Shown piece by piece: positions 4,528 to 56,319 of a DNA stretch of 64,000 bases. A program made the translations under genes and the position numbers. The first letter of the stretch is position 1; each line of letters opens with the position of its first letter. Below the pieces are notes generated by a model. That model did not search any database. It saw only the letters and a list, made by a program, of their open reading frames with translations, and had not been told where the DNA came from. Source of the stretch: a virus (lineage: Duplodnaviria; Caudoviricetes); the IMG/VR virus record IMGVR_UViG_3300009873_000020, positions 1,387 to 65,386 of that record; one strand, 5' to 3'.

Positions 4528-5853
4528 ATGGATTTAATACAACTACGCACAAAATGGGCCGAAACCCTGGAGGAGATGCGAAAGATCGCCGACCGGGCCA
4601 AGGCGGAACAGAGGCTATTAACCGAGGAGGAAGAGAAACGCTACGGAGAATTGGAGCAGCTCGAGAAGGACTACTCGGCGAACATCGAGCGGCTCGAAAG
4701 GCTCGAACAGCTCGAGGCCAAGCGGAACGAGCCCGTCAACAAGCCGGTGGACCTGAAGGTCACCCGCGAGGACAAGCATGATGACCAGGGCGAGCCGAGG
4801 GTCTTCCGTTCGCTCGGCGAGCAGCTTATGGCGGTTCGCGACGCGGCTTTATACCCGAGGGCGAATCACTCCAAGCTGGACGAGTGCCAAAAGATCATGC
4901 GTGCCATTTCGGGTATGAATGAGACCGTAGCAGCCGACGGTGGAATACTGGTCGAAAAGCAGTTCGTCTCGGGCCTGATGGACCGGGCCGAAGAGGAGTC
5001 GAAGCTTCTCCCTCTGGTTCGGCGCATCCCCGTCAGCGCTAACTCAAACGGCATCAAGTTTTACGGGGTCGATGAAACCTCAAGGGTGGACGGATCTCGC
5101 TGGGGCGGCGTTCAGGCCTACTGGGAAGGCGAAGGCGATCAGTACATCGCGTCCAAGCCGAAACTAACCCCACAATCGATGACGCTCAGGAAGCTGACCG
5201 GCCTTTGCTACGTGACAGAGGAGCTGCTGGAGGATTCGACCGCGCTTGAGGCGTTTATCCGCATGGCGTTCGGGGACGAGTTCGGCTTTAAAATCGACTA
5301 CGCCATCCTACACGGCACCGGAGGTGGACAGCCCAAGGGCGTGTTCAAGGCGGAATCGCTGGTCGTGGTTGCCAAGGAGTCCGGGCAGGCGGCTGACACC
5401 ATCGTCCTGAACAACTTGACCAAAATGCGGGCAAGGCTCTGGGCTCGAAGCCGTTCTCGGGCCGTGTGGCTGATGAACGCCGACGTGGAGCCGCAGCTTC
5501 TGGGCCTTAACCTGTCGGTTGGCAATAACGCTTACCCCGTGTTTTTACCGGCCACCGGCATTTCTGGCGCCCAGTACGACACCCTCTTCGGGCGCCCGAT
5601 GCTCCCCATCGAGCAGATGGAAACCTTGGGCGATCAGGGGGACATCCTGCTGTGGGATCCGGAAATGTACATGGTAATCGATAAGGGTGGATTAAAAGCT
5701 GCTACTTCGATTCACGTTCGGTTCTTGTTTGACGAAGTGGCATACAAGTTCACCATGAGGTTGGACGGACAGCCGCTCGTGTCAACTGCGCTTACTCCTT
5801 TCAAGGGAACTGCGACAGTAAGCCCATACGTAACGCTTGCAGCTAGAGCTTAG
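4528..5853 (+). CDS. Major capsid protein, HK97 fold with N-terminal coiled-coil delta domain
   Basis: Charged N-terminal scaffold; DGGILV, VTEELLEDS, GTGGGQPKG, LFGRP, MRLDGQP; position after protease. Confidence 0.95.
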   Translation: MDLIQLRTKWAETLEEMRKIADRAKAEQRLLTEEEEKRYGELEQLEKDYSANIERLERLEQLEAKRNEPVNKPVDLKVTREDKHDDQGEPRVFRSLGEQLMAVRDAALYPRANHSKLDECQKIMRAISGMNETVAADGGILVEKQFVSGLMDRAEEESKLLPLVRRIPVSANSNGIKFYGVDETSRVDGSRWGGVQAYWEGEGDQYIASKPKLTPQSMTLRKLTGLCYVTEELLEDSTALEAFIRMAFGDEFGFKIDYAILHGTGGGQPKGVFKAESLVVVAKESGQAADTIVLNNLTKMRARLWARSRSRAVWLMNADVEPQLLGLNLSVGNNAYPVFLPATGISGAQYDTLFGRPMLPIEQMETLGDQGDILLWDPEMYMVIDKGGLKAATSIHVRFLFDEVAYKFTMRLDGQPLVSTALTPFKGTATVSPYVTLAARA

Positions 5854-5874
5854 TAAACAGAGGAGCATATTGAT

Positions 5875-6327
5875 ATGGATACGCCATTTAAGATGGTTCA
5901 GGTTTTGCCCCCTGCGGCTGACCGATACAACGCAAACCCGAGCACCGACATCGTGAGTCTAGAGAACTTCGAGCGCGTCGTGTTCGTCATCGGCGCCGGC
6001 GCTGGGGACACCGGCACCGCGACGATCACGCTGAACGCCGCCTCGGACAACTCCGGCACGGGCGCCGAGGCGATCCCGTTCTTTTACCGGACGGGGGCTG
6101 CGGACGCCGTCTCGCAGAACTGGACCCAGGCGACGGCGGCGGGCTTCACGACCGCCGCGGCCGCCGACGGTTTGCACCTGGTCATGATCGACGCGGGGCA
6201 CTTGCCGGAAACCAAGCCGTGGGTTTTCTTGACTCTAACCGAAGTCGCTAATGATCCCGTGTTGGCGGGCGCGTGGGCGCTGTTCTTCGAGCCTCGGGCA
6301 AGACTCGACACCGCTGTACTTACTTAA
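5875..6327 (+). CDS. Probable capsid decoration/cement protein
   Basis: Directly after MCP; beta-rich small protein with SD. Confidence 0.55.
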   Translation: MDTPFKMVQVLPPAADRYNANPSTDIVSLENFERVVFVIGAGAGDTGTATITLNAASDNSGTGAEAIPFFYRTGAADAVSQNWTQATAAGFTTAAAADGLHLVMIDAGHLPETKPWVFLTLTEVANDPVLAGAWALFFEPRARLDTAVLT

Positions 6328-17200: not shown

Positions 17201-17438
17201 CGTGGTCGGCACCGCCATCTTGAAGCTCTCTTACGTTCAAGACGATCTGGTGGGGGAGCCGAACTTCGCGGTGAAGCTTGCGTATAGCTTTGACGGCGCA
17301 AGCTGGACCGAAGAGGTGGGAGTGACGCATTTATTCTCCACGAATTTTCGGTTTGTAAAAATTCGATTTGAATTTGAAAGCGTGAGCACGGGTTCTGGGG
17401 AGCCGGTCGGCGTACTTTTGAGTATCACGAAGCCATGA
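14295..17438 (+). CDS. Tail tip / central fibre protein (J-like) with FN3 repeats; C-terminal domain apparently truncated
   Basis: IIYG..RV.G, V.G..CYDPRT, QNAALC..D, R.TLNG; repeated PPSNVTGF/WNKP/Y.FWIKAID FN3 units. Confidence 0.9.
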   Translation: MIDDPFPPALPIGNYAPVVKERDPWHVTKDEVEKYLKNHRRAKASRKVIRQRLRAAKIKNAPGKEVSFSQSDAPWQIIYGTVRVPGVLTFAHITNNNYDLHQVYTIAGHEVQAINYVYLDDARITFDGSGEGVATGEVKNGASGTNYLNVFAMHRALGGPNQDAIGELVTRALAFWTQNHRQRNHAHVYLRFHWNAEKYPENLPDVTFEVQGEKCYDPRTASISFTQNAALCIGDFLMDQKYGCKIPISRIYVGSGSSDEGSLWWAADICDEEVNLVGGGTEARYTLNGYFDASRTRREILEEMLTAMGGSITYSGGLWKFWPAAWRAPAQAFEEGDILGDINVQTHVPRRDSFNAVKGTYASALHNYEETDFPPVTNALYLSQDNDERIWEDIVLPFTTSGSAAQRLAKIALEKQRQQISIEFTAKLKALQCEVPDNITVTYSRFGWTSKAFELIDFKPLAESDENGVPVFMVQISARETAEGVYDWNNGDETTIDLAPNTTLPSASSYTLPTGVLLESGTSHLYIRSDGTVFSRIKVSWDEMTDAFVSSGGFIEIQYKQSSASDWQNASSVPGDQTFTYILDVQDGAQYDVRIRSKSALGVLSPFTDIHSHIVIGKREPPSNVTGFSAQIQQFGILLFWNKPPDLDLSQHEIRIGGSSWETATFLQAVDGTSVFVKMQNAGGYTFWIKAIDTSGNYSAAAASLDTTIAGPGAPFTTFSLSGPNVLFEWTAPGSHFGIDEYLISYGPAYASSIFVASVKGTRYALKAEWSGTRRFWIAAKDVAGNIGTPYQIDINIVTAGIVQNLRSEVIDNFILLRWDKPSASTLPLDHYKVYKGTPFSSAMLIGQLSGTFFTHFETQAGTYTYWVRSFDSAGNAGAELSITATMAQPPDYVLLDNFIVDPSTYTSKANVVTDNFELVGPIKEETWEEHFVDNGWDTPEDQISAGYPYYCQPGAEEGHWEKVIDLGGVVGTAILKLSYVQDDLVGEPNFAVKLAYSFDGASWTEEVGVTHLFSTNFRFVKIRFEFESVSTGSGEPVGVLLSITKP

Positions 17439-18730
17439 CGATCACTAAGTTAGTTGAATACGAATCTGCCATGACGACCTTCGGCGCCTACCTCTCGGCT
17501 CATCTTGCAGATCCGACCATCTCAGACGAGCAAAAGCTGTCGAATGTTTACTACGACGCGCAATACGTTTTCTACCGCATCGCGACCTACACCAACGATC
17601 ACGCCACCTGGAACCTGGCGGCGGAAAGGGCCGAGGCAATCTACCGCGACTATTACCTCATCCCTTCAAACGCCCAGGTGCCGGGTTTTTGGGCCTTTAC
17701 GGAAGGGTTGAAAGAGTCGTGGCTAAGGACTCAAGACGGCATCAGTAAGACCTGGGCCATCAACATCTCGAACAACGCTGCCTACCACTCGGAAGTGCCG
17801 GACACCTTGACGGATCTGGCGGACGATTTGTTCGCGAGAGAAAACGCCTACGCCCTCTTGAGCCATTTAAATGCCGAGCTTTTAGGGGCTCCGAGGAGGG
17901 AGAGGATCTACACGCTGGTCGATAATGCTCTGGGCCACATCGACGCCTGGGTGAACGAGACGGCCTCCTACTGTAAGCCATTCTTTACAGCCTTAACGTG
18001 CCGCTCGCTCATCAGGTATAACGACATGATCGGCGACAGCCGGATCGTGCCGGCCATCGAGTCCATCTGCGACTACATCTGGGACAACCTCTGGGACGCG
18101 GGGGCCGAGGCGTTTCTCTACATCCACGACGTTTATCCGGGGGAAGATCCGCCAGACCCGGCGCCCGACTTGAACATGCTGATCGTGCCGAGCTATGGGT
18201 ATCTTTATTCCAAAACCTTCGACTCAAACTGGCTTACCATAGGGGACCAGATTTTCGACGGCGGCGTGCCGATCTACGACGAGTGGGGCTTTCACGTTAG
18301 CGGCGCGTACCTTGGCCAGTCGAACTCGGCCGGCGTGAACGGCAAGCACTTCGACCAGCAGTTCCTCTGGAGCATGGATTATCTTACGTGGGCTCAGGCG
18401 GTCGAGCCGATAAGCGGCGGCATGACGGGCTTCGGCGACATCGCCCGAGTCTTTAACATCGGCTTGAGGCTCGATGCCAAGGTAATTAAAGACTCGGGCA
18501 GCCAAACGGTTACTGACGCGGCCAGCGGCGCCGTGGTACAGTTCAACAAAAGCTTTGTGGACATAAAGAGCCTACACGTAACGCCCCAGTTTAGCTCGAG
18601 CTATCCGCTGACTGCCGTGTACGATTTTCAAGACGTGCCGAACCCTACAAGCTTTATCGTGTATCTTTACAGGACCGATACGGGCGCGAAGGTGACGGGA
18701 AACTTTAGCTGGTTTGTAGAAGGATATTAG
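17435..18730 (+). CDS. Helical-barrel (putative six-hairpin glycosidase-like) domain fused to a tail-tip C-terminal beta domain
   Basis: aa ~5-325 align by eye with 53701-54807; last ~95 aa (LRLDAK..DSG...F...F.DI.S..VTP...YDF.DVPNPTSF.V.L...G..V.G.FSW..EG) resemble tail-tip C-termini. Confidence 0.7.
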   Translation: MTITKLVEYESAMTTFGAYLSAHLADPTISDEQKLSNVYYDAQYVFYRIATYTNDHATWNLAAERAEAIYRDYYLIPSNAQVPGFWAFTEGLKESWLRTQDGISKTWAINISNNAAYHSEVPDTLTDLADDLFARENAYALLSHLNAELLGAPRRERIYTLVDNALGHIDAWVNETASYCKPFFTALTCRSLIRYNDMIGDSRIVPAIESICDYIWDNLWDAGAEAFLYIHDVYPGEDPPDPAPDLNMLIVPSYGYLYSKTFDSNWLTIGDQIFDGGVPIYDEWGFHVSGAYLGQSNSAGVNGKHFDQQFLWSMDYLTWAQAVEPISGGMTGFGDIARVFNIGLRLDAKVIKDSGSQTVTDAASGAVVQFNKSFVDIKSLHVTPQFSSSYPLTAVYDFQDVPNPTSFIVYLYRTDTGAKVTGNFSWFVEGY

Positions 18731-23992: not shown

Positions 23993-24298
23993 ATGGAAGA
24001 ATTCACCAAACAGCCCTCAGAGCAGTGGACTATCGCCTGGAACTTCTTCGGGAAGCTGGCGCCTTTCAGCTCGGCGAACCTGGCAAGCGGCACCATCACG
24101 GCTTACAACGTGACCGACAGCGCTGACGCGACGGCCACGGTTTTATTCAGCAGCACCATGCAGATATCGAACTGGCTGGCGAAGTGCCGCGTGAAGGACG
24201 GAACGAGCGGCAAGAACTACCAGCTAACCGCGCTCGTGGTGGATTCGGATGGAGAAGTGTACGAGGAGGAGGTGTTAATGCGCGTTTTGGAGGAATAA
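23993..24298 (+). CDS. Small phage structural/virion-associated protein
   Basis: F.KQP.E, GT.G..Y..T.....S.GE..E.E pattern. Confidence 0.6.
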   Translation: MEEFTKQPSEQWTIAWNFFGKLAPFSSANLASGTITAYNVTDSADATATVLFSSTMQISNWLAKCRVKDGTSGKNYQLTALVVDSDGEVYEEEVLMRVLEE

Positions 24299-24299
24299 C

Positions 24300-24932
24300 G
24301 TGCTACCCGAACTTATCGTTCAGATGAATGACCTTTTCAAGAACGAGGCGCCACGTCATATGGCGCTTCTGCGGGACAAGGCGCAGCAGGGCGACATGAT
24401 CGAGGTGATAAAGGAGGCGCACGGCCTGGCGGGGACCGCCCGCAAGATCGAGGCCGTGGGACTGTACGAGCTTTGCATGTCGATTGAGCGCTTCGCCAAG
24501 GACGGTAACAAGGCGAGCCTGATGGAGTCCCTCTTCCACCTGGAGGCGGCCTATAATGACGCGCTGCACCAGGCGAACAAAACTACCATTGATCGTCGCC
24601 TCGAAGGGGTGGAGGCGAGCATCGTAAAGTTCGAGGCGTCACTTAAGCAGGAAATGAACGAAATGAAGTTGGCGCTACGCGATCATATCAAGAAACAGGA
24701 TGAGATATTACACAGCATTCGGGACAACACGGACGAGGTAAAGCGCTTCACCGAATCGGTCGGCAGGGAGTTCACCTCGATGGTGCAAGCGATCCTCGGG
24801 AAAAAGCAGGTGCCGCTCGAGATTTTCCAACGAATCATGACCATCTTTAGTTTGATTGCGATGGCCCTGGCCACGATCATTATTTTCCTCATCACGGGAA
24901 AACACCTCGGTTGGATACCGCCGATACCATGA
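24300..24932 (+). CDS. Hpt-domain protein with coiled coil and C-terminal TM helix, in holin position
   Basis: EAHGLAGTARKIEAVGLYELCMSIE resembles Hpt AHxLKGxxxxIGAxxLxxxCxxLE; TM at aa ~179-200; SD GGAGGA; ATGA overlap with endolysin. Confidence 0.7.
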   Translation: MLPELIVQMNDLFKNEAPRHMALLRDKAQQGDMIEVIKEAHGLAGTARKIEAVGLYELCMSIERFAKDGNKASLMESLFHLEAAYNDALHQANKTTIDRRLEGVEASIVKFEASLKQEMNEMKLALRDHIKKQDEILHSIRDNTDEVKRFTESVGREFTSMVQAILGKKQVPLEIFQRIMTIFSLIAMALATIIIFLITGKHLGWIPPIP

Positions 24933-25351
24933 CAATTAACCTCGCCACCTGGAAGGAGCGCTGGCCGAACTTTGAACCGTTTGAAGTTCTGTCGGACGAC
25001 GGCATGAGGGCATTTAACGCGGGGCATCTGGTGATTCAGCCGTTCGCCATGGATTTTCTGCAAGAGTTCCGCGAGAAGGTGGGCCGGGGCTTGATCGTAA
25101 ATACGTTGCAGCACTCCCGCCGTGGCTATCGGAGCCCTCGGGAGAACGCGCAAGTTAAGGGCGAGGAGTTCAGCTACCACATGCAGGGGCTCGCGTTCGA
25201 CATCAGCAGTCCGTCGATAAGGCTAGAAGATTTGCGCGCGGAAGCGGTGAAGTTCGGATGGCACGGGATCGGGAGCTATCCGAGCCGCTCCTTTATACAC
25301 CTCGATCTTCGACCGCGCCTCGATGACAAGCAGTGGTTTTGGGAGGGGTGA
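24929..25351 (+). CDS. Endolysin, peptidase M15 family
   Basis: GYRS..EN..V.G...SYHMQGLAFDI, GIGSY....FIHLDLR. Confidence 0.9.
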   Translation: MTINLATWKERWPNFEPFEVLSDDGMRAFNAGHLVIQPFAMDFLQEFREKVGRGLIVNTLQHSRRGYRSPRENAQVKGEEFSYHMQGLAFDISSPSIRLEDLRAEAVKFGWHGIGSYPSRSFIHLDLRPRLDDKQWFWEG

Positions 25352-26595
25352 TGATGAGACTGATTCAAACACTGATGGCTCTGGCCGTAATGCTTGCGCT
25401 TCTTTGCGGGGCGATGGCGGCGACGACTCAGGCGCAAGACGCCAGGGTAGGGCTTGCGCCATATAGCATCATGTCCCCACGCTGGCCTTGCAAGCAATAC
25501 ATGCGGGCCTTTCGCGGAGTGCCGGAGATTCGGTTCAGTTGGTTGTGGCGAACATTCGGTGAAGAGAAAGGTTGCGTCACGCAGCTCTTGCAGAACCAAC
25601 GAACGAAAGCGGCTCAAATTTATCTATTGAATTCCGTGGGGCACCGTAACAGGAGGCTTGGCAATTATGAGTTCCTCAAGGCTTATTCGGTACAGGAGTG
25701 GGAGGCGAAACTTAGGGCAAGAGATCCTAAGCTTCTTTCTCGATATCGTGAGTATGCTCGCGCTGCTAGTGATTTTCTACGGGCTAATCTACGGCCTGGC
25801 GTTGCTTGCTATGTAGCGCCGGAGCTTGAAGGGAACACCTCAGCACAAGCCTTCAAGGTGCTGGCCGAGGTGACGAAAGAGGTTTTTCCGAACTGCCAGA
25901 TCGTTCGCTCCGTCTTTCGGCAGCCCGCCGTAGCGCCGTACCACTACGAGCGCCACGAGACGAATGCGAGACTACAGGCTCCTTGCGTATGGAGTAATGA
26001 CGGAATCGGGATCAAGCATCATGGTCAAGACTCAAACCTTGCTAGCAACGTGTCAAGCGACGACGTTCCGGCACTCGTGAAGCGATTCGCAAAGTGCGAC
26101 AACATTTACCTCTGGAACGATTTTGATAACGCAATCTGTAAGGGCGGCTTTGTCGATCCAAGGAAGAGAACCTGCTGGCCCACTAAAGAGAAGATTGCCG
26201 CCACCAACAAGATGCTGCGCGAGCTGTACGAAAAGCCGGTCGTGGTCCCCCCGCCGAGCGAAGAAGATGAAGCGGCGAAGAAGAAGTGCCGCAAGGTCAA
26301 CCGCTCGAACGACGGGGCGGGCGGTTTTTTGTGGAAGCCGCTTTCTGACGTGAGACCTTCGGCAGTCGCCTTACTCCCAGGTAGATTCAAAGAGAAGTTT
26401 AAGCAGGTTGAGTTGATTAAAGGGAAGAAAGTTCTTGAGCGGTTAATCTGGAGTGGTTTTGGAAACGATGACAAGGATGGTCCCCGGCATCATTGGCGTT
26501 CAACACGAAAAGGGTCTTCTCTCCCAAAGCATACGCTATTAAAAGCTGATGGTCAGTGTTGGCCCTTAGCTGATCCAGGGAGCCGATTAGATTGA
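25351..26595 (+). CDS. Exported hypothetical protein, two domains joined by Pro-rich linker
   Basis: Signal peptide MMRLIQTLMALAVMLALLCGAMA; Cys pairs; C-terminal GFLWKP.SD domain. Confidence 0.7.
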   Translation: MMRLIQTLMALAVMLALLCGAMAATTQAQDARVGLAPYSIMSPRWPCKQYMRAFRGVPEIRFSWLWRTFGEEKGCVTQLLQNQRTKAAQIYLLNSVGHRNRRLGNYEFLKAYSVQEWEAKLRARDPKLLSRYREYARAASDFLRANLRPGVACYVAPELEGNTSAQAFKVLAEVTKEVFPNCQIVRSVFRQPAVAPYHYERHETNARLQAPCVWSNDGIGIKHHGQDSNLASNVSSDDVPALVKRFAKCDNIYLWNDFDNAICKGGFVDPRKRTCWPTKEKIAATNKMLRELYEKPVVVPPPSEEDEAAKKKCRKVNRSNDGAGGFLWKPLSDVRPSAVALLPGRFKEKFKQVELIKGKKVLERLIWSGFGNDDKDGPRHHWRSTRKGSSLPKHTLLKADGQCWPLADPGSRLD

Positions 26596-27330: not shown

Positions 27331-27513
27331 ATGATTCACTTGATTCTAGTGTTAATCCTGATCGGCGCCTTGATGGTGCTGGTCCCGATGGATGATCGGA
27401 TAAGAAAAATCGTTAACATCCTCGTGGTGGTTGTGGTCGTGCTGGCGCTACTGCAACTATTCGGGCTCATCCCGACAACGCTTCCGCTTCACATTCACGC
27501 CACAACAGTTTAG
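27331..27513 (+). CDS. Small two-TM membrane protein (holin-like candidate)
   Basis: Two hydrophobic stretches separated by PMDDRIRK; SD AGGAG. Confidence 0.7.
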   Translation: MIHLILVLILIGALMVLVPMDDRIRKIVNILVVVVVVLALLQLFGLIPTTLPLHIHATTV

Positions 27514-27528
27514 TTAAGGAGATACGAT

Positions 27529-27750
27529 ATGACAGAAGAAACATTGACGCATCCCCACCAGGCCGTGAAGCTCGCCACCACCAAGACGGCGGCGGGCGCT
27601 ACGGTTCAGGCATTAACATCGGCCACGGCGCTTAGTTACGTGCCCGAGCCGACCATCCAGGTGATCGGCTGGCTCGTTACCGTCGCATCGTACCTCTGGA
27701 CGCTCTACGGGCGTTACCGGGCAACTAAGAAAGTGACAAAGGTAATATGA
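27529..27750 (+). CDS. Small membrane protein (holin-like candidate)
   Basis: Hydrophobic segment then W.LYGRYRA.KKV basic C-terminus; SD AGGAG. Confidence 0.65.
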   Translation: MTEETLTHPHQAVKLATTKTAAGATVQALTSATALSYVPEPTIQVIGWLVTVASYLWTLYGRYRATKKVTKVI

Positions 27751-27914
27751 GATATCTTTTTTTGCTCTTATTCGCCCTTGCCGCCTGCACGTATGAGCAG
27801 GTGGACGCTTTCTTGAACGATCCCGCCTGGAACGAGATTGACGACATTGAGCCGGACGAGGAGGAGGTAGAGCCTACCCCCGCCTCGGACGAATACGAAC
27901 TTAACGACGTTTAG
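27747..27914 (+). CDS. 55-aa lipoprotein (possible o-spanin-like; not in ORF track)
   Basis: MRYLFLLLFALAAC lipobox, acidic tail; ATGA overlap. Confidence 0.65.
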   Translation: MRYLFLLLFALAACTYEQVDAFLNDPAWNEIDDIEPDEEEVEPTPASDEYELNDV

Positions 27915-44368: not shown

Positions 44369-44791
44369 GGTAGTGTCCTAATTTGAACTCAACCGGGGAC
44401 GAGCCTTGATGGCTGCTGCCAAAGGTGATATTGTGTAATACAACAAATAGATGGACGCAACGAGATTCGAACCCGCATCTCATGAATGTGAAGGCCATGC
44501 GGTTTACCGAGTTAACCTATGCGCCCATGTTATTTGCTTCTCGTAAAACGGGACTTGGACTGGCATGCAGGTTATTTTTCGAGGGTTACGCTGCATGCCA
44601 GTCCTTCTTTAGTCCCGCTACAGCAATGTACTAGCGGTGCTGAATCAATCACACATAATCTTGGCTTGATTAGGCATGGCTTAGTAAGGCACGGTTCGGA
44701 CTGGCTAGGCATGGGTGGGGCTTTCAACTCACAAGTTGAAAGCCCTCGTTTTTTATCTAAACGAAAGTTGATTTGAAATTAGGACACTCCC
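44369..44791. mobile_element. 423-bp MITE-like element, 25-bp TIRs, 8-bp target duplication CTCGTGCA, carries a tRNA gene
   Basis: Left GGTAGTGTCCTAATTTGAACTCAAC (44369-44393); right-end reverse complement GGGAGTGTCCTAATTTCAAATCAAC (44791-44767); 22/25 identical; CTCGTGCA at 44361-44368 and 44792-44799. Confidence 0.8.
44452..44526 (-). tRNA. tRNA, most likely Val(CAC), with 9-nt anticodon loop; no encoded CCA
   Basis: GGGCGCA/TGCGTCC acceptor, GGTT/AACC D stem, CATGG/TCATG anticodon stem, loop CCTTCACAT, GCGGG-TTCGAAT-CTCGT T arm, A discriminator. Confidence 0.75.
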
Positions 44792-55168: not shown

Positions 55169-55337
55169 TCTTACGCACCCGGTAAACTTACGGGCCGATC
55201 TGTTCGAGAGCTTCATCAGGCACAAGCTCGACGAGGTGGCCGAGCACAACTTTCTCTTGGGCTACACGATGGCGGGCGGGACGATAGAAGAGGCGGACAA
55301 GGCTTGGGAGAGGGTAAAGAAAGATAGGGAATTATGA
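55119..55337 (+). CDS. Hypothetical protein
   Basis: SD GAGGA. Confidence 0.55.
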   Translation: MMKTSKTSPIPIPPALDLTHPVNLRADLFESFIRHKLDEVAEHNFLLGYTMAGGTIEEADKAWERVKKDREL

Positions 55338-55936
55338 AACTACTATTCGCAACACTACTTTTTGCAATGCCTGCCTACGCCCAAACCATCCCGCTTTACG
55401 TCGTATCAGTGGATGGCCCAAACGCCCTATCGTACCAGCAGGTAAACAGCCTGCTCGCCAACATGCGGCAATACTTTTTGCAAGAAACCGGCATTAACTT
55501 TGTGGTGAAGCGCCACGTCCGGGACCGGCAGCGCTTCCCCTTGTGCAACCAACTCGCAAACCGGCTTTTGTGCTATAGCCGCTGGAGCGGACGGCTGGCA
55601 AGGAGGAGCCGGAACAAGCGCACTTTGAGGCTTGCGATCCTGCCGCCCGCCCAGGACCAGGGCATCTGGTGGATGTGGGGCTATGCTCAAACAGGCTGCA
55701 GCTACGGGCGAAGGCTCGCCAGTGCCGTCATTGGTGCTATGCCCAGAAACCACCTCGGCCAGCCCCGCGAGGCTCACTCGATGGTGTATGCTGCACACGA
55801 ATTAATGCACCTCGCCTCAGGCACCCACCAGGACGCAAGGCCGAACCTGATGCACTCCGACGCCCTCAAATACTTCGCCGGCTACTTGCCCGTTGAGGAC
55901 CAGACCCGGCGCGAGGTGTCAGCTTGCATCCGGTGA
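55334..55936 (+). CDS. Exported zincin-like metalloprotease
   Basis: Signal peptide MKLLFATLLFAMPAYA; AHELMHLASGTH (HExxHxxGxxH-like), NLMH Met-turn. Confidence 0.75.
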   Translation: MKLLFATLLFAMPAYAQTIPLYVVSVDGPNALSYQQVNSLLANMRQYFLQETGINFVVKRHVRDRQRFPLCNQLANRLLCYSRWSGRLARRSRNKRTLRLAILPPAQDQGIWWMWGYAQTGCSYGRRLASAVIGAMPRNHLGQPREAHSMVYAAHELMHLASGTHQDARPNLMHSDALKYFAGYLPVEDQTRREVSACIR

Positions 55937-56319
55937 CGCCGATTTTACTAATCGAGGACAACCCAGGCGATCAGGTCTTGATGCAGGAGGCGTTTCGGCC
56001 CTACCCGGTGAATCTCCACGTCGCCTGGTCGGTTGACTCGGCAAGGAACATGCTGGCCGAGAACATCTATAGCCTCGTGCTGCTCGATTATAATCTCCCC
56101 AGGGTGGCCGGGGCGGACGCGGTACGGCTCGTCAAGTCGCTTGTCCCGCCTACGACTCCGGTGATCGCCCTTAGTGGCTCAGACCATACCCTCACCATCA
56201 AGGCCGCGTATGACGCCGGAGCCAACTGCTACCTGGTCAAGCCCGTGGGTTATCAGGATTTGGAGGACTTGATCAAAGCGCTCTATGAGTTTTGGATCGT
56301 CAGGGTGCAGAGGGGTTAA
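55933..56319 (+). CDS. Single-domain response regulator receiver (Rcp1-like)
   Basis: ILLIEDN, LVLLDYNLP (phospho-Asp), ALSGS, AYDAGAN.YLVKP; GTGA coupling. Confidence 0.93.
   Translation: MTPILLIEDNPGDQVLMQEAFRPYPVNLHVAWSVDSARNMLAENIYSLVLLDYNLPRVAGADAVRLVKSLVPPTTPVIALSGSDHTLTIKAAYDAGANCYLVKPVGYQDLEDLIKALYEFWIVRVQRG

Follow-up and report, generated by a model that had tools for sequence, protein, structure and literature searches.

A histidine phosphotransfer domain joined to a membrane anchor in a phage lysis cassette suggests a link between two-component signalling and lysis

The timing of phage lysis is understood in few model systems, for example lambda S105/S107 and T4 RI/RIII. In Staphylococcus, the two-component system LytSR governs the holin/antiholin-like cidAB and lrgAB. 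In XhlA, encoded by the B. subtilis prophage PBSX, a helical N-terminal part is combined with a C-terminal transmembrane (TM) helix. Its gene precedes those of the holin XhlB and the endolysin XlyA, and this membrane protein, although not a holin itself, is needed along with both (PMC5589764). In T4, where lysis inhibition involves the holin T and the antiholins RI and RIII, and in ICP1 with TeaA/ArrA, an accessory membrane-associated protein restrains or tunes the holin on a signal (PMC11413866, PMC7182436). The subject of the present analysis is a protein of 210 amino acids from an uncultured, temperate phage, which carries a histidine phosphotransfer (Hpt) domain, a long helix and a C-terminal TM helix and is encoded directly upstream of an endolysin gene. 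Its gene lies in a window of 64,000 nucleotides, i.e. the whole stretch of DNA that was analysed, corresponding to bases 1387-65386 of a 65,386-bp IMG/VR virus record (IMGVR_UViG_3300009873_000020) that CheckV rated as complete. The gene and the parts of its product are as follows.

24289-24294, + strand: Shine-Dalgarno sequence GGAGGA, 5 nt before the GTG start codon
24300-24932, + strand: open reading frame with GTG start, gene for the Hpt/long helix/C-terminal TM protein, 210 amino acids
24330-24560, + strand: Hpt four-helix bundle, residues 11-87 (Pfam, Foldseek, alignment of the histidine)
24540-24797, + strand: single long helix, residues 81-166 (86 residues), coiled-coil-like linker (AlphaFold2 secondary structure)
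24816-24908, + strand: TM helix, residues 173-203 (hydropathy, AlphaFold2)

The N-terminal domain was recognised by Pfam PF01627 over residues 11 to 87 with a score of 38.5 bits (cut-off, 24.6 bits; E 1.4e-9). An AlphaFold2 model was built on 12 sequences and had a mean predicted local distance difference test score (pLDDT) of 87, with values of 94 to 97 across the bundle (residues 11 to 90). When this model was compared with the PDB using Foldseek, all 12 best-ranked matches were Hpt proteins, including the HPs of rice and maize, AHP1, P. aeruginosa HptB and ArcB. TM-scores among the matches reached 0.72, the value obtained with HptB (7c1i) at a root mean square deviation of 1.7 Å. In the family profile His41 (codon 24420-24422) aligns with the phospho-histidines of HptB and RcsD/YojN, and it is invariant in every Hpt-bearing relative (25 to 38% identity). 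The four relatives with 33 to 38% identity also all have Ala40 and Glu63. In the most distant relative, P0006 (25% identical), the histidine is kept, residue 40 is Leu and residue 63 is Arg (P-numbers denote related proteins, L-numbers compared phage loci and A-numbers alignments). Of the motif HxxKG...G the protein retains the Gly at H+4 and has Ala44 for the Lys at H+3 and Glu51 for the Gly at H+10; the H+10 position varies within the Hpt-bearing family (G, N, E or Q). An Hpt-like bundle with His41 and the two departures from the consensus (K to A and G to E) had already been noted in a sequence-only reading of the window. Both observations were correct, and the two checks that it had proposed, a search with the Pfam Hpt hidden Markov model and a structure prediction, each gave Hpt. 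Judging from profile and model, the Hpt domain is genuine and looks functional. No informative family for the protein was found in PADLOC and NCBIfam.

The protein has the four-helix bundle, the position of the phospho-histidine, the Gly at H+4 and a Glu on the next helix in common with known Hpt proteins such as HptB (7c1i), RcsD/YojN and ArcB. Unlike the Hpt domains of these proteins, it is phage-encoded, tail-anchored via a long helix and located within a lysis cassette, and with Ala at H+3 and Glu at H+10 it departs from the consensus of known Hpt domains. Like LytSR with cidAB/lrgAB, it would represent two-component control of holin-like membrane proteins, but the Staphylococcus system is bacterial and transcriptional, whereas here a domain is physically fused in a phage. 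XhlA differs in belonging to a Gram-positive system, in being much shorter and in having no signalling domain; comparison of the XhlA family (Pfam PF10779) with the window protein gave no match at E <= 1, and one of 11 relatives matched at E 0.015. T4 RI/RIII and ICP1 TeaA/ArrA follow the same logic as that proposed here and have no sequence or fold relation to the Hpt protein. RI of T4 senses in the periplasm, whereas the predicted sensing domain of the Hpt protein is cytoplasmic and of the His-Asp phosphorelay type. Full-text literature searches returned no paper describing an Hpt or receiver domain within the lysis cassette of a phage, in line with the earlier remark that no example had been described. 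The fusion of an Hpt domain to a membrane protein of a lysis cassette is new.

The long helix (residues 81 to 166) is charged and contains two glycines (G103 and G155) and no proline. A coiled coil had been proposed for residues 95 to 165 or so, and this proposal stood in part: the AlphaFold2 model had a continuous helix from residue 81 to 166, but a crude heptad test did not separate it from shuffled sequences, 90 of 500 of which scored equally high (not significant). A coiled coil in this stretch is plausible, while "long helical linker" is the description that the model actually supports. After a short break following residue 166 comes the only membrane segment, located at residues 173 to 206 by hydropathy and at 173 to 203 as a helix in the model, which bears out the TM helix placed earlier at about residues 179 to 200. 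It is preceded by a GKxQxP motif and ends in LTG..GW, both of which are common to the family. About seven residues follow the TM helix, and the sequence at and beyond its end is GKHLGWIPPIP. Because basic residues are more numerous on the N-terminal side of the TM helix, where the protein also carries its cytoplasmic signalling domain, we infer that the protein is oriented N-in and tail-anchored in the inner membrane. Identity as an i-spanin (Rz-like) was considered and rejected: an i-spanin needs an N-terminal TM helix, a periplasmic coiled coil and an o-spanin lipoprotein as its partner, and here the TM helix is C-terminal and the N-terminal part carries the cytoplasmic signalling domain.

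HMMER, run exhaustively against 1.84 billion representative proteins, returned five full-length relatives (P0002 to P0006, 209 to 244 amino acids) and one fragment. This search also returned relatives of the C-terminal half only, which are without Hpt (P0013, P0015, P0022, P0044 and P0047). Nine further short relatives (P0056 to P0064) were obtained by a profile search; they again lack Hpt and have neither a name nor a Pfam family. In a tree of the shared C-terminal module, the six Hpt-bearing proteins fell into one well-supported group with three Hpt-less ones, and the Hpt fusion may have had a single origin. The helix-plus-anchor module is an unannotated family. Since relatives without Hpt exist and group in the tree with the Hpt-bearing ones, the Hpt domain is an add-on to it. 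A word-based protein search with the Hpt protein recovered only the query itself, and tblastn and megablast searches with the Hpt protein, its region and the 420-amino-acid protein encoded downstream gave no match in 50,697 phage genomes. Pattern scans of GTDB genomes and IMG/VR for Hpt-TM relatives found none, and the Hpt family was not found in five other phage records carrying the cassette. In BFVD the Hpt protein had no match at E <= 0.001, the best being a protein of the algal virus EsV-1.

The genes that follow in the window, and the best holin candidate, are listed below.

24929-25351, + strand: M15 peptidase endolysin, 140 amino acids, no signal sequence (Pfam M15_3, 46 bits; PHROG endolysin, E 2e-19)
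25333-26595, + strand: secreted protein of 420 amino acids, third gene of the cassette (homologues at the same position; weak fold leads)
27529-27750, + strand: hairpin membrane protein of 73 amino acids, best holin candidate (similarity to cassette hairpins)

The TGA stop codon of the Hpt gene overlaps the ATG start codon of the M15 gene in the sequence ATGA (24929-24932), as had been read earlier. Comparison with related loci gave a cassette with the order anchor protein, endolysin (M15, GH24 lysozyme or SLT), secreted glycosidase-like protein of about 400 amino acids and small hairpin membrane protein. In L008 an Hpt-form anchor is followed, with a 4-bp overlap, by a GH24 lysozyme and then by the protein of about 400 amino acids. 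An Hpt-less anchor precedes an M15 peptidase and the same third protein in L013 and L015; in L014 the Hpt-less anchor is followed by a TM protein of 59 amino acids, an SLT transglycosylase and the third protein. The short-form anchor of L016 is followed by a Phage_holin_10 protein, and the Hpt-form anchor of L007 by a hairpin membrane protein of 56 amino acids. L003 and L010 also encode an Hpt-form anchor and have no recognised endolysin nearby. In L008 fibre genes lie downstream instead, yet the adjacency of anchor and endolysin is kept. As the place next to one conserved gene is taken by three unrelated peptidoglycan hydrolases (a non-orthologous displacement), gene order assigns the anchor family to a lysis cassette and not to a virion module. 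The sequence-only reading had placed a membrane-anchored protein in an endolysin-linked slot, and this was upheld, the family being located upstream of three unrelated endolysin families or, in L016, beside a Pfam holin. A further instance of the Hpt form next to an endolysin, which it had suggested looking for, is that of L008 beside the GH24 lysozyme. The nearest cultured relatives of the M15 protein are peptidases or endolysins of Rhodobacter, Sinorhizobium, Marinomonas and Salinivibrio phages, i.e. phages of Alpha- and Gammaproteobacteria, which gives a hint of the host.

The 420-amino-acid protein shares 29 to 34% identity with its positional counterparts in L008, L013, L014 and L015. Its family has at least 150 relatives of 270 to 440 amino acids in IMG/VR and no Pfam or PHROG annotation, and in many IMG/VR contigs (L019-L098) it sits between endolysin and holin. 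Because the AlphaFold2 model was poor (pLDDT 64), the fold matches are weak leads only; they point toward a TIM-barrel glycosidase of clan GH-A. The modelled protein is probably TIM-barrel glycoside-hydrolase-like, and the family may provide a third lytic enzyme that acts on an outer layer of the envelope. The IMG/VR loci of this family encode a single-pass membrane protein whose helical part is cytoplasmic, then an endolysin (GH24, SLT or DUF5675), the glycosidase-like protein and a hairpin of 57 to 80 amino acids. In L042, L043, L046, L051 and L074 the endolysin slot (at about 5250-6000) is occupied by a DUF5675 protein (118 bits, with a weak Tlde1-like match), and the TM helix of the single-pass membrane protein is N-terminal instead of C-terminal.

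The open reading frame for 73 amino acids is 32 to 35% identical to the hairpins that close the cassettes of L019 and L023, and in L016, L043 and L046 the cassette hairpin is Pfam Phage_holin_10. Its own PHROG holin match was weak (E 0.056), and a reverse-strand gene and a membrane protein of 60 amino acids set it apart from the cassette. Holin candidates had been noted earlier at 27331-27750, and the similarity to cassette hairpins supports the one at 27529-27750. The Hpt protein and its relatives matched no holin family in Pfam and PHROGs. The Hpt protein does have a TM helix (residues 173-203) and lies beside an endolysin gene with the ATGA overlap, but with 210 amino acids it is large for a holin and the charged hydrophilic C-terminal tail is absent. 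Because the cassette keeps a separate small hairpin, which is Phage_holin_10 in some phages, the Hpt protein is unlikely to be the sole holin and represents a conserved second membrane component. The earlier claim that it is the holin was therefore not sustained.

Two further small genes lie beside the hairpin gene. The product of the first (27331-27513, + strand) is the two-TM protein of 60 amino acids that precedes the hairpin; it matches NCBIfam NF041949, "Thivi_2564 family membrane protein", with 36.9 bits (cut-off, 33) and has no counterpart in the related cassettes examined. The second (27747-27914, + strand), whose start overlaps the stop of the 73-amino-acid gene, encodes a very acidic protein of 55 amino acids with a lipoprotein-type signal (LFALAAC). 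This protein may be a lipoprotein of the o-spanin type, but an i-spanin partner was not recognised anywhere in the cassette.

The phage also encodes a receiver.

55933-56319, + strand: stand-alone receiver (REC), 128 amino acids (Pfam, 62 bits)

The whole 65,386-bp record contained one Hpt domain (40.2 bits in the genome scan) and this one receiver (62 bits), and no HATPase_c or HisKA kinase domains were found in it, so that the earlier description of an intact receiver without a histidine kinase held. With Hpt and REC and without kinase domains, a multi-step phosphorelay (kinase, REC, Hpt, REC) is not encoded complete. As a receiver but no kinase is present in the phage, any phosphate must come from the host, either directly or via the phage receiver, which is a possible partner of the Hpt domain. 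The best NCBIfam similarities of the receiver include the receivers of the hybrid kinases LuxQ and TorS. The receiver gene starts inside the end of a gene for a 200-amino-acid signal-peptide protein with an HELMH motif (55334-56319, + strand, for both), for which no Pfam family was found at E <= 0.01.

Receivers also occur at the same slot of other phages. An intact receiver (Pfam, 46 bits) stands immediately before a protein of 85 amino acids with a helix and a C-terminal TM helix in L099 and L021/L022, and a lysozyme, the glycosidase-like protein and a hairpin follow. In L102 and L107 the order is receiver, anchor protein of 83 amino acids and hairpin. The receiver family (P0066 to P0074) keeps the phospho-acceptor Asp, the Ser and the Lys. 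In the more distant phages L108 to L110, one of which has a genome of 273 kb, a receiver-containing protein is followed by a helix-plus-TM protein. The 96-amino-acid anchors of L054/L071 (A7) showed no significant homology to the Hpt anchor family (A4) in hhalign. The receiver-anchor pairs parallel the Hpt protein in architecture and position only. The idea that a phosphorelay is wired into lysis nevertheless gains independent support from receiver genes located directly before analogous anchors in the same slot. In L021 (4813-5527), and also in L022, the receiver reading frame runs about 30 codons past the end of its relatives and shares 92 nt, in a different frame, with the anchor reading frame; a frameshift, an error of assembly or a true overlap of the two could account for this.

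Upstream of the Hpt gene lie genes for fibre or adaptor proteins of the GP4 gp80 and gp77 families. The stop codon of the gp77-like gene (24296-24298) falls between GGAGGA and the GTG of the Hpt gene. No promoter-like or terminator-like site was found between the tail genes and the Hpt gene, and the gp80- and gp77-like tail-fibre genes and the Hpt gene read as one late operon. The residues ahead of Met9 of the Hpt protein are conserved among homologues, with Pro3 invariant, and for this reason the GTG start (210 amino acids) is preferred over the database call of 202 amino acids (ATG at codon 9). A protein of 431 amino acids is encoded after the tail-tip gene (17435-18730, + strand) and has homologues with 33 to 34% identity in L010 (9071-10399, - strand) and L011, where they lie convergent to the gene for the Hpt-TM homologue P0006; no family was found for it. 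ARAGORN detected a single tRNA with anticodon TCA, which reads UGA, labelled tRNA-SeC (44450-44527, - strand). Read-through of the TGA of the Hpt gene, considered on account of this tRNA, gave no meaningful extension, and the phage reading frames appear intact under table 11. The tRNA may be of the suppressor type; it had been placed earlier on a small transposon-like element.

The reading favoured here, with a confidence slightly short of even, is that the anchor protein regulates lysis or partners the holin, is controlled by His-Asp phosphotransfer and is not itself the holin. The Hpt bundle and the helix of about 86 residues would face the cytoplasm, and the C-terminal helix would hold the protein in the inner membrane. 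As an accessory or regulatory partner, comparable to an antiholin or to XhlA, the protein would set whether and when the holin triggers, and in the Hpt-carrying lineage the phosphorylation state of His41 would modulate this activity. The phosphoryl group would be exchanged with receivers of host hybrid kinases and/or with the phage receiver (55933-56319), and lysis timing would thereby be coupled to a two-component signal, with a logic comparable to that of T4 lysis inhibition. A more general proposal, which is possible although the balance lies against it, is that several phage lineages gate lysis by His-Asp phosphotransfer. They would do so either through an Hpt-bearing anchor (the window phage and five other sequence clusters) or through an anchor translationally coupled to a receiver; the two-component state of the host would set the lysis time, and the Hpt domain would be the output-controlling element. 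Several observations weigh against a role in phosphorelay-controlled lysis. With Ala in place of the canonical Lys at H+3 and Glu in place of the Gly at H+10, the normal docking of receivers could be changed or lost altogether, and to our knowledge Hpt domains do not serve as output domains. In L003 and L010 no recognisable endolysin adjoins the Hpt protein. The phage receiver is 31 kb away from the Hpt gene and has no anchor protein beside it, and the receiver-linked anchors (A6) are not detectably homologous to the Hpt anchor family A4 (hhalign probability, 0.3%). Finally, the heptad test lent no statistical support to a coiled coil.

The Hpt-TM protein might itself be the holin, with oligomerisation of the TM helix releasing the cytoplasmic M15 endolysin and phosphorylation of the Hpt domain gating the hole. 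As is classical for holins, its gene immediately precedes the gene of an endolysin without signal sequence and is translationally coupled to it, the family is conserved while the endolysins are exchanged, and the protein has one TM helix, as in single-TM holins such as T4 T (PMC11413866). This is nevertheless distinctly unlikely, given that no holin family was matched, that the tail of about seven residues is not the charged C-terminal tail typical of holins, and that every well-resolved cassette also has a small hairpin membrane protein (Phage_holin_10 in L016, L043 and L046). It is unlikely too, although to be taken somewhat more seriously, that the protein acts as a hijacker of host signalling: the membrane-tethered Hpt domain would, late in infection, be a sink or shunt for the phosphoryl groups of host hybrid kinases, possibly in concert with the phage receiver. 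In that case the protein would take no direct part in making the hole, and the anchor would do no more than bring the Hpt domain close to membrane kinases. The intact Hpt active site in a phage without a kinase, the similarity of the phage receiver to those of hybrid kinases such as LuxQ and TorS (NCBIfam) and the location away from an endolysin in L003 and L010 would fit this role; yet the anchor module is a lysis-cassette-specific family with motifs of its own (GKxQxP, LTG) that is also found without Hpt, and in other phages receiver genes are coupled to analogous anchors in the same slot.

The comparative data weigh against the two remaining explanations. The Hpt fold could be a structural relic, its bundle reused for oligomerisation or binding and without phosphotransfer. 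Although two canonical residues have been exchanged (Lys at H+3, Gly at H+10) and Hpt-less relatives work without the domain, this appears very unlikely with His41 invariant in all Hpt-bearing members, Ala40 and Glu63 invariant in those that are 33 to 38% identical, and a Pfam score well above the cut-off. A virion or ejection protein of the tail module is scarcely credible: the gene does follow the gp80- and gp77-like tail-fibre genes in one late operon, but a virion protein would not combine a cytoplasmic signalling domain with a C-terminal membrane anchor, the fibre genes of L008 lie downstream with the endolysin adjacency kept, and the neighbour in L016 is a holin.

The comparison defines an unannotated lysis cassette of anchor, interchangeable endolysin, secreted glycosidase-like protein and hairpin holin in at least 150 uncultured phage contigs. 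The case for lysis signalling is strengthened by the receivers that recur at the same slot in other phages. If the regulatory reading is true, the Hpt-anchor fusion would be a direct, genetically testable link from bacterial two-component signalling to the lysis clock. It would further add a rare example of a phage-borne Hpt domain, and of one that belongs to an effector instead of acting as a shuttle. Signals such as envelope stress from superinfection, or quorum signals received via hybrid kinases, would then set the lysis time, and phosphate gating would be the cytoplasmic equivalent of T4 lysis inhibition, based on phosphorylation. The gene order and domain composition described here suggest that phages may tie the moment of lysis to two-component signalling.

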